From: Candidatus Woesearchaeota archaeon
Lineage (GTDB): Archaea > Nanobdellota > Nanobdellia > Woesearchaeales > JAZDKJ01
Direction: 5' to 3'
Length of the DNA stretch: 64,000 nt
Assembly (NCBI GenBank): GCA_043803105.1
Contig: JAZDKJ010000006.1
Location: 128,001-192,000, forward strand
Below, piece after piece: positions 59,242 through 59,544 of this stretch. Under the pieces are notes generated by a model. It ran no database searches and was not told the origin of the DNA. It worked only from the letters and a program-made list of their open reading frames with translations. The translations under genes and the position numbers were made by a program. Within the stretch, counting starts at the first letter, position 1. Each line of letters opens with the position of its first letter.

Positions 59242-59379
59242 TAGCCCCTGACGGACTTTCGGAACTTTTTCCCAGGTTTTTTCCTATGGAAAAAAGCTGC
59301 TTCGAACCGTCGTCACCAGGTCCAGAGCCCAATACCAGAGTTTATCTGTTAGTATGCTTGACCGCTACACTAAGGGGCT
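59242..59379 (-). tRNA. trnQ: tRNA-Gln(CUG) with two non-canonical introns (29/30 at 59349-59330; 59/60 at 59300-59256)
   Basis: Spliced 73-mer AGCCCCTTAGTGTAGCGGTCAAGCATACTA|GGCTCTGGACCTGGTGACGACGGTTCGAA|TCCGTCAGGGGCTA folds into a cloverleaf; both junctions form BHB motifs. Confidence 0.93.
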
Positions 59380-59505
59380 AAATTGTTGAGTCAGCAAAAA
59401 AAGCCTTTTCCCAGGTTTTTGCATAACACAAAATCTTTGATTTTGTGGGATTAAAAAACTTTGTTTTTCAATATTGCAAAAAGCTGACTGCTACACTAAG
59501 GGGCT
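59380..59505 (-). repeat. Duplicated tRNA 5' end (59505-59485) plus a ~105-nt multi-hairpin element related to tRNA intron 2
   Basis: 16-bp perfect (20/21 bp) direct repeat; shared CAGCTTTTT...AAAAACCTGGGAAAA; inverted repeat AGTCAGC/GCTGACT. Confidence 0.8.
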
Positions 59506-59544
59506 GTAGGACAAAAGAACTTAATATTCAGTTAAAAAGTTTTC

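Follow-up and report, generated by a model that had tools for sequence, protein, structure and literature searches.

How protein-spliced introns enter the tRNA genes of archaea is an open question. In the Thermoproteales, similar introns are described from different tRNAs (Fujishima et al. 2010 as described in PMC4090602 and bioRxiv 10.64898/2026.10.13.758758), and in Caldiarchaeum subterraneum a 5' tRNA fragment precedes a gene that gained an intron, the two being separated by a 1.8-kb element with a recombinase (Sugahara et al. 2012, PMC3293823). Furthermore, disrupted tRNA genes are reported from DPANN archaea, a Woesearchaeota genome among them (PMC5829648), and a study of direct repeats near introns in general includes four archaeal introns (PMC11782384). 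Here we describe a tRNA-Gln(CUG) gene of a Candidatus Woesearchaeota archaeon, located in a stretch of 64,000 nucleotides (nt) of contig JAZDKJ010000006.1 (positions 128,001 to 192,000 of the forward strand; hereafter the window, with positions counted from its first letter). The gene carries two introns and a duplicated 5' end, and small non-coding hairpin elements of a single family, which occurs in and around stable-RNA genes, have probably struck it two or more times. The genome (1.56 Mb in 13 contigs, 96% complete) is called G000 and its contigs carry C-numbers, G001 is a genome of the same genus (84% complete) and L-numbers denote single loci.

The tRNA-Gln(CUG) gene (59242..59379, 138 nt, first pair A1-U72) lies on the minus strand, as do all parts described here, and consists of three exons and two introns. 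Exon 1 (59350..59379) holds the tRNA positions 1-29, exon 2 (59301..59329) the positions 30-59 with the anticodon loop CUCUGGA, the T-stem and the T-loop up to A59, and exon 3 (59242..59255) the positions 60-73. Intron 1 (59330..59349, 20 nt) interrupts the gene at 29/30 with a bulge-helix-bulge (BHB) motif of the hBHBh' type, which was read by hand and is candidate 30-50 of the BHB scanner. Intron 2 (59256..59300, 45 nt) lies in the T-loop at 59/60 and is composed of a G, a hairpin module called M1 and the closing sequence TTCCGAAAG. The gene model is based on in-silico splicing with ARAGORN, on a search anchored on the T-loop and acceptor and on a script combining BHB detection with ARAGORN; over 27 tRNA spans this script was correct for both Gln genes and gave ambiguous or spurious identities for many others. 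Throughout this study, tRNA isotypes other than Gln, Ala, Thr, Tyr, Arg and Val are tentative.

In the raw 64-kb window neither ARAGORN nor Rfam reports a tRNA; with Rfam 15 no family reaches its gathering score in the window and none E<=0.1 at the locus. When both introns are removed in silico, ARAGORN calls a 73-nt tRNA-Gln(ctg) with a canonical cloverleaf, and it calls a tRNA-Gln only once both are out. Hand reading and the scanners find in both introns the two 3-nt bulges and the 4-bp helix of BHB introns. In intron 1, the central helix AUAC/GUAU is combined with the bulges UAA and UGG and the inner helix CAGA/UCUG. In intron 2, UUCG of the T-loop (positions 54-57) forms the central helix with CGAA near the 3' end of the intron, and the bulges are AAG and AGU. 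The 29/30 splice site is confirmed by the orthologue in G001, where exon 1 and exon 2 are joined directly and intron 1 is lacking. For the whole of G000, ARAGORN (introns allowed) recovers nine tRNA genes and the Rfam tRNA model six over its cut-off, because most of the genes hold non-canonical introns. The genome encodes an RNase P RNA (117.5 bits) and a single splicing endonuclease EndA (PF01974, 96.8 bits, in a 205-aa open frame, G000:C4:37141-37398). Judged from its sequence, the locus appears to hold a functioning gene for tRNA-Gln(CUG), in an archaeon of the DPANN group.

Intron 2 and the region upstream of the gene share a hairpin module. Within the intron, M1 (59265..59299) consists of CAGC, an 8-bp U/A-rich stem, the loop AUA and the tail CCTGGGAAAA, and it is the best match to R1, the covariance model of the family described below (57.6 bits, E 3.4e-9). 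In the second M1 module (59404..59486), the stem halves TTTTTGCA and TGCAAAAA are parted by a 51-nt nested double hairpin (59424-59474). R1 gives a weak partial match here (23.6 bits), and the stem halves are identical to those of uninterrupted copies at C6:403763 and C12:123975. The shared module bears out the central claim of a preliminary description of the locus, namely that intron 2 and the upstream element belong together, as members of a single family of small palindromic repeats associated with tRNA genes. The 15-mer TTTTCCCAGGTTTTT, to which that description pointed, occurs exactly twice in the window (plus-strand positions 59267 and 59406), with 0.01 occurrences expected and none of 100 shuffles holding two. 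A further shared word, AAAAAGCTG, is indeed present at the plus-strand positions 59291 and 59478; by itself it is no more frequent than chance would have it (2.15 expected; two are reached in 64 of 100 shuffles) and it is meaningful only inside the longer repeats D1 (24 nt, 79%) and D3 (20 nt, 90%). The sequence of intron 1 has no likeness to the hairpin repeat family. Lookalikes of the nested double hairpin were seen at L005 (G040:C9) and L004 (G018:C1), the former directly 3' of an intron-free tRNA-Gln(UUG).

The duplication of the tRNA start is as it had been described: 59359-59379 and 59485-59505 match over 21 nt with 20 identical positions (95%) at a spacing of 126, and the single mismatch turns the D-loop GG into AG. 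The upstream copy, which we call the stub (59485..59505), is a non-functional copy of the tRNA-Gln positions 1-21 at the original start of the gene. From the stub to the real tRNA start extends a 105-nt spacer (59380..59484), which is closed by AGTCAGC (59483-59489) and GCTGACT (59389-59395) and ends in CAACAATTT. This closing helix and the two inner hairpins, both noted in the preliminary description, are present in the sequence and in the minimum-energy fold. Also retained is the observation that the sole TATA-like site lies upstream of the duplicate: the box TTTTTAAC (59531..59538) starts 33 nt upstream of the stub, a spacing as in ordinary tRNA genes. In 14 such genes of G000, a TTTAWAWA-like box starts at -31 to -34 from +1, and in stub-bearing genes the distance from box to stub is -33 (Gln), -34 (C6:221050), -32 (Arg) and -38 (Tyr). 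As the TATA box keeps about its normal spacing to the stub and not to the functional copy, the stub marks the former start of the gene.

Since the only promoter precedes the stub, a transcript of the functional tRNA-Gln must include the stub and the 105-nt spacer, from which the tRNA is then cut out. Transcription would start from the old promoter and run through stub and element, RNase P would cleave at the real +1, and the endonuclease together with a ligase would take out both introns. Hand searches found no BHB that splices the upstream copy, as a real exon, to the tRNA body, and no suitable BHB for a removal of the leader by leader-trailer pairing. A 28-nt exact match of the tRNA 5' part, with which strain-level relatives were sought, is found in none of the metagenome or genome contigs searched.

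The module is a real sequence family. Its core consists of CAGC, a stem with a conserved C.C mismatch and then CCTGGGAAAA, and full copies are about 76-105 nt long and end in ...AGCTG. In the 1.56 Mb of G000, CCTGGGAAAA is counted 25 times against 2.7 expected. There are 14 short copies which align over CAGC, the 8-bp stem, a short loop and CCTGGGAAAA, and in this alignment 153 of 153 cells of 11 stem pairs are standard pairs. Five of the 11 pairs are changed on both sides, with 23 compensatory cells, which none of 500 shuffles equals; slid controls of the alignment pair in at most 67% of the cells. The covariance model R1 detects 15 strong copies in G000, and seven further copies were identified by pattern, with extra hairpins between stem and tail or, as in the Gln spacer, a nested insert in the loop. 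The fuzzy pattern search returned 88 rows, mostly false, of which the hairpin-bearing ones were kept by eye.

Out of these about 22 copies, 20 are located in or beside tRNA or 16S rRNA genes. By our own reading, ten are T-arm introns, all in sense orientation, and eight lie between a stub and a tRNA in either orientation. Besides these, one copy abuts the +1 of a tRNA, one heads a 16S rRNA intron, one has an unknown context and one lies at a site without an RNA gene between perfect 18-nt direct repeats. Occurring in ten T-arm introns of different tRNA genes, the module forms a transposed tRNA-intron family in the sense of Fujishima et al. (2010), and the further copies for which the preliminary description proposed to look, in G000 and in other genomes, exist both in other tRNA introns and at flanking sites.

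The 16S rRNA copy belongs to an insertion of about 150 nt (G000:C8:150831-150983, L026) within a GGATTAGATACCC-type stretch. The insertion starts with the module and ends in ...AAAAAGCTGCTAATG, and the gene was confirmed as small-subunit rRNA. Read by hand, its junction is BHB-compatible with the central helix TTAG/CTAA, and the metagenome locus L135 carries the module at the same 16S site. The copy outside RNA genes (C5:47106-47152) is 47 nt long and is flanked by the 18-nt repeats ATGATTATAAAACCCAAC in an intergenic promoter-like stretch; a possible stem of 6 bp (GTTGGG/CCCAAC) has its base where the repeat ends.

To define the tRNA genes of G000, we used a search anchored on the T-loop, T-stem and acceptor. 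It gave 40 rows, of which eight that are not tRNA-like (AT-rich, no D-arm) and five alternative stub starts were dropped, leaving 27 genes. An intron at 59/60, 15-150 nt long, is present in 20 of the 27, one of them ambiguous. In C10:3423, a second copy of the gene's own 3' end was seen inside the called "intron", and its structure is uncertain. Of the 20 T-loop introns, six have CAGC at their start, 0-1 nt from the 5' splice site, and five have there, again within 0-1 nt, the opposite terminus GAGCTGA..., i.e. the element reversed. That the ends of the element coincide with the start of the intron argues for the element being the intron itself and not a later guest in it.

Full copies in other genomes have the order CAGC, hairpin 1, CCTGGGAAAA, hairpin 2, hairpin 3, ...AAAAGCTG, (R)YGAAAG and exon. 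The YGAA is complementary to the T-loop UUCR rather than a duplicate of it, as UUCA is found with UGAA and UCCA with UGGA; in the 16S insertion CTAA stands opposite TTAG of the exon. Since YGAA pairs with the near-universal T-loop UUCR and thereby builds the splice motif, any tRNA T-loop can host the element as a harmless intron. Two genes of G000, tRNA-Ala(CGC) (C6:303770-303841) and tRNA-Thr(CGU) (C12:123849-123921), are intron-free with high Rfam scores. Their T-loops are TGCGACT and TGCAACT instead of the usual TTCRAAT, and both genes are followed by element copies and 3' stubs.

The stub of the Gln gene is one of several. Among 35 tRNA genes of G000 examined, seven have a 5' stub, which is a copy of the first 14-21 nt located 71-126 nt upstream of the gene, and five have a 3' stub, with one or two copies of the last 12-26 nt located 59-214 nt downstream. 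An eighth 5' stub was found on C13, next to a tRNA which by eye is Gly(CCC). All copies of a 5' end begin at +1, except for that of Ser, which begins one base before it, and they stop within the D-loop; the 3' stubs extend from positions 49-62 to position 73 or 74, and ...AGCTG usually stands in front of them. The duplications in the tRNA genes of G000 thus cover the part between the D-loop or T-loop and the respective tRNA end, and in each case one complete gene copy survives with the stub left behind. In other genomes the duplications can extend past the tRNA end and include flanking DNA (G082, L100, L120). The flanking duplications are variable in length, between 12 and 45 nt.

At three different tRNA genes (C6:449376-449472, C8:113780-113873 and C6:221181-221251), perfect 14-nt duplicates of the 5' end are followed by a hairpin of a second type, CTCACAGAAC-loop-GTTCTGTGG. 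Long forms of the element also contain this type, as does the intron in the T-loop of tRNA-Gln(UUG). In G001 (L079), two tandem units of stub plus hairpin precede one orthologous tRNA.

The orthologous tRNA-Gln(CUG) of G001 has no intron at 29/30 and no 5' stub, and it carries a 29-nt D-loop intron at 21/22, which has no similarity to the spacer of the Gln locus. Its 72-nt intron at 59/60 begins with CAGC and contains CCCTGGGAAG, and the stem is lost. Consequently, both the slot and the decayed module that it holds are older than the separation of G000 and G001. At L003 (G001:C26), a degenerate copy of the last 12 nt was seen about 50 nt downstream of the tRNA-Gln, past a hairpin-like spacer. 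The sister gene tRNA-Gln(UUG) of G000 has a D-loop intron at 15/16, the tRNA-Gln genes of G005, G026, G032 and G040 are intron-free, and in tRNA-Gln(UUG) of G045 the module sits at 59/60, in G016 directly after the 3' end.

Among the genomes seen, the stub and intron 1 appear specific to the line of G000. The module of intron 2 is identical in 33 of 33 nt to a copy at G000:C7:30613, in a class II tRNA gene read as tRNA-Ser, and this identity points to a recent copying or conversion event within G000. The preliminary description took intron 2 for a recent gain, and "snapshot of intron gain" is too strong for it: with 20 of 27 tRNA genes of G000 occupied at 59/60 and an intron at the same site in G001, the slot is old and nearly universal in G000, so that a fresh gain of intron 2 is not supported.

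The family is not confined to G000. At E<=1e-3, R1 matches 23 of the 150 other genomes searched in the order; the copy number varies from 0 to 15 between genomes, and G001 has no match. The exact gapped pattern of the module was found in at least 118 stretches of metagenomes and at least 104 stretches of species-representative genomes, and it has no match in the viral contigs searched. Out of the at least 118 matching metagenome stretches, 84 matches in 80 loci were read in their context. Among the matches read, 39 of 84 follow a T-loop and 30 close as 59/60 introns (L108 being a false call) in 24 distinct host T-arms. The lengths of these introns cluster at 76 and 101-105 nt, and near-identical introns of 76 nt and about 103 nt are shared among the 24 T-arms of distinct host tRNAs. 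Flanking direct repeats of 12-45 nt are present in 15 of the 84. Among the 80 genome loci listed, the record titles name Woesearchaeota (18), Micrarchaeota (14), Nanoarchaeota-type archaea (8), Iainarchaeum (6) and Undinarchaeota (3), and 28 more are titled archaeon or Methanosarcinales. Three bacterial loci among the genome matches listed, all in one conserved coding context, were taken as chance. By its record titles the family thus appears widespread, spanning several DPANN lineages.

We infer that the hairpin family is mobile; what the sequences show directly is its anatomy, covariation and distribution and the presence of the processing genes. The behaviour of a mobile element, which had been proposed for it, is seen in near-identical introns in many host T-arms, in copies of both orientations and in insertions flanked by direct repeats at non-tRNA sites. 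One possible route, a DNA insertion with a long and variable target duplication, would fit the copies in the flanks and those at non-tRNA sites.

Several observations weigh against this reading of the Gln locus. The T-loop intron copies have no target duplication and carry a 4-nt complement to the exon, which a simple DNA insertion leaves unexplained; a DNA insertion with long duplication would likewise fail to explain the built-in splice motif and the borders of the stubs. These borders at the tRNA ends are unexpected, as a blind staggered-cut mechanism would not give them. Moreover, runs of 5 to 7 U are present inside the leader (59380-59484), in intron 2 (59256-59300) and in the module generally. 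Archaeal RNA polymerase tends to terminate at U runs, and one would expect the U5-U7 runs of the element to hinder transcription of the tRNA. The strictness with which the stem is paired might instead reflect a function in the cell.

No mover was found in the 96%-complete G000, where searches gave no RVT_1 and no Cas1; among RVT_1, Cas1 and Y1_Tnp there is no transposase partner related to the element in this genome (DDE transposases and other genomes were not searched). The sole IS200-type Y1 transposase (a 161-aa frame, G000:C6:210290-210892) is flanked on both sides by CCGCAC-TTTA-GTGCGG, and as these hairpins are unrelated to the module it was rejected as the mover. The same holds for the three tyrosine recombinases or integrases of G000 (418-431 aa), each located beside a module-bearing tRNA gene: the candidate attachment-site (att) repeats of two of them, taken as 12-mer matches with one mismatch allowed, have no module at the junction. 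The first of the two is part of C10:28583-65640, with a tRNA-Ser, an integrase of 428 aa and the 3' end of the tRNA repeated at distances of 35.9 and 36.9 kb downstream. The second is part of C6:509998-521612, with a tRNA read as tRNA-Leu, an integrase of 431 aa and a 12-nt repeat 11.3 kb downstream. Both regions are apparently classical integrated elements, and the third integrase (C7:31119-32375) lies near a contig end.

An insertion at the RNA level with copying back into DNA would fit the YGAA guide, the preference for T-loops and the borders of the stubs; as a second possible route it lacks a reverse transcriptase. The elements would be self-propagating protein-spliced introns: the YGAA of an excised intron (CTAA in the 16S copy) would pair with a target loop, above all with the T-loop UUCR, and rebuild the bulge-helix-bulge in trans, whereupon the host endonuclease and ligase, acting in reverse, would insert the intron and the product would be copied into DNA. 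Stubs would then be by-products of the copying back, bounded by RNA ends and loop sites. We hold this route to be unlikely. If true, it would be the first concrete vehicle and mechanism for the gain of archaeal tRNA and rRNA introns, with no need for an enzyme encoded by the element.

The stub can also be read in the opposite direction, as a trace of intron loss. Stub and spacer would be the old first exon and a former D-loop intron, and a processed, intron-free 5' part would have been patched in just ahead of exon 2, for instance by repair with the mature tRNA or its cDNA as template, leaving the old exon stranded beside the promoter. In line with this, the first base of the stub is exactly +1 and its last lies in the D-loop (positions 16-21). 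The orthologue in G001 shows a D-loop intron at 21/22 and lacks a stub, and tRNA-Gln(UUG) of G000 has a D-loop intron at 15/16. Furthermore, all eight 5' stubs of G000 end at 12-21 and its 3' stubs start at 49-62, which are the intron zones, and the functional copies have by eye no intron at the stub boundary, with the exception of C8:7813. However, no reverse transcriptase was found in G000, and the D-loop intron of G001 is dissimilar to the spacer. Similar duplications exist at non-tRNA sites (C5:47106-47152 with its 18-nt repeats, L117, L143 and L161), and some exceed the ends of the mature tRNA (G082, L100, L120). The 3' stubs are preceded by the bare terminus AGCTG and not by the YGAAAG closure of real T-loop introns. 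We consider intron loss improbable as the source of the stub; on sequence grounds, either an insertion or the remains of a D-loop intron may account for it.

Rather than a mobile element, the module could be a functional cellular RNA or DNA signal, such as a processing or stability hairpin, a terminator or insulator, or a protein-binding site, which was repeatedly recruited near stable-RNA genes. The perfect pairing with compensatory changes, the invariant C.C mismatch and the invariant single-stranded CCTGGG(A/G)AAA tail would suit such a role, as would the conservation of a 35-nt core over several DPANN lineages. Some copies are placed right after stop codons and before ribosome-binding sites (L103, L137) or directly after tRNA 3' ends. 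Against a signal stand the occurrence of copies in both orientations relative to the host genes, in discarded introns, in the 16S rRNA and with target duplications, and the family is patchy within the order, with 0 to 15 copies per genome and none found in the 84%-complete G001. It has no match among the Rfam families. A function in the cell and mobility can go together; as a replacement for mobility, a cellular signal seems quite improbable to us.

It is very unlikely that the duplicate is the att-site repeat of an integrase-driven element of the pNOB8/SSV type, as in the model of Sugahara et al. (2012), and that most of this element was later deleted. Partial direct repeats of tRNAs are a classic archaeal integrase footprint according to PMC3293823, and the three recombinases mentioned above each lie next to a module-bearing tRNA gene. 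Nevertheless, the candidate att repeats of two of them are 36 kb (C10) and 11 kb (C6) away with no module at the junction, and those of C10 extend past the tRNA 3' end. The Gln stub is only 105 nt from its gene and the spacer is non-coding, which is not the layout of an integrase att pair. Stubs are found at 13 or more different tRNAs, an integrase-like match is present within 3 kb at one of 28 context loci of other genomes, and the module pattern is absent from the viral contigs searched. Finally, a mis-join in this metagenome-assembled genome of 13 contigs as the source of the 21-nt duplicate and spacer is extremely unlikely, because the layout of stub, element and tRNA recurs at eight other tRNA genes of G000 and in independent assemblies (G001, G082, G073, L107, L110, L231), the locus lies inside a 542-kb contig and the two copies differ at one base.

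On the preferred reading, that of a mobile hairpin family, the moving unit itself is visible here: it is short, with defined ends and a conserved hairpin. It takes the form of a ready-made T-loop intron in many tRNAs and genomes, of an rRNA intron and of plain insertions that duplicate their target. The family may thereby show how archaeal tRNA genes gain introns, and it offers concrete substrates for experiments. It is apparently undescribed; in the literature searched, supplements being outside its scope, we found no earlier account of an element of this kind from DPANN archaea or from Woesearchaeota.

Miniature inverted-repeat transposable elements (MITEs), repetitive extragenic palindromes with their transposases (REP/RAYT) and palindromes derived from IS200/IS605 are small, non-coding and present in many copies at non-disruptive sites, with hairpins kept by compensatory change. 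The elements described here resemble them as small non-coding multi-copy hairpins with compensatory change. They differ in having inverted repeats of only 4-5 nt at their termini (CAGC...GCTG), duplications of 12-45 nt instead of a fixed length, intron copies without flanking repeats and no matching transposase among the families searched in G000, and the hairpins of the Y1 transposase in G000 are not theirs. The term MITE-like, used in the preliminary description, therefore holds as an analogy only. A further difference is the strong tie to tRNA and rRNA genes and to the motif of protein-based splicing. Jay and Inskeep in 2015 reportedly described BHB introns without an open reading frame in the 16S rRNA genes of archaea. 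They are comparable to the insertion of about 150 nt with a BHB-compatible junction that the module heads here; the lineage is another one, and in the present family rRNA and tRNA introns have the module in common.

In Caldiarchaeum, as described in PMC3293823, there is likewise a 5' fragment, an intron-containing full copy and foreign DNA between direct repeats, and intron gain and fragment formation are tied to one event. The insert there is 1.8 kb long and encodes a recombinase, whereas here it is 105 nt and non-coding, and the candidate att repeats of the integrases in G000 are different. The family resembles the transposed introns of the Thermoproteales in that similar introns lie in different tRNAs. 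The host is a DPANN archaeon and not a member of the Crenarchaeota. Compared with the Thermoproteales case, which is known to us by description only, the unit here has defined termini and a hairpin supported by covariation, and it also occurs outside introns, in the flanks with duplicated ends, in intergenic DNA and in 16S rRNA, in both orientations and in many genomes.

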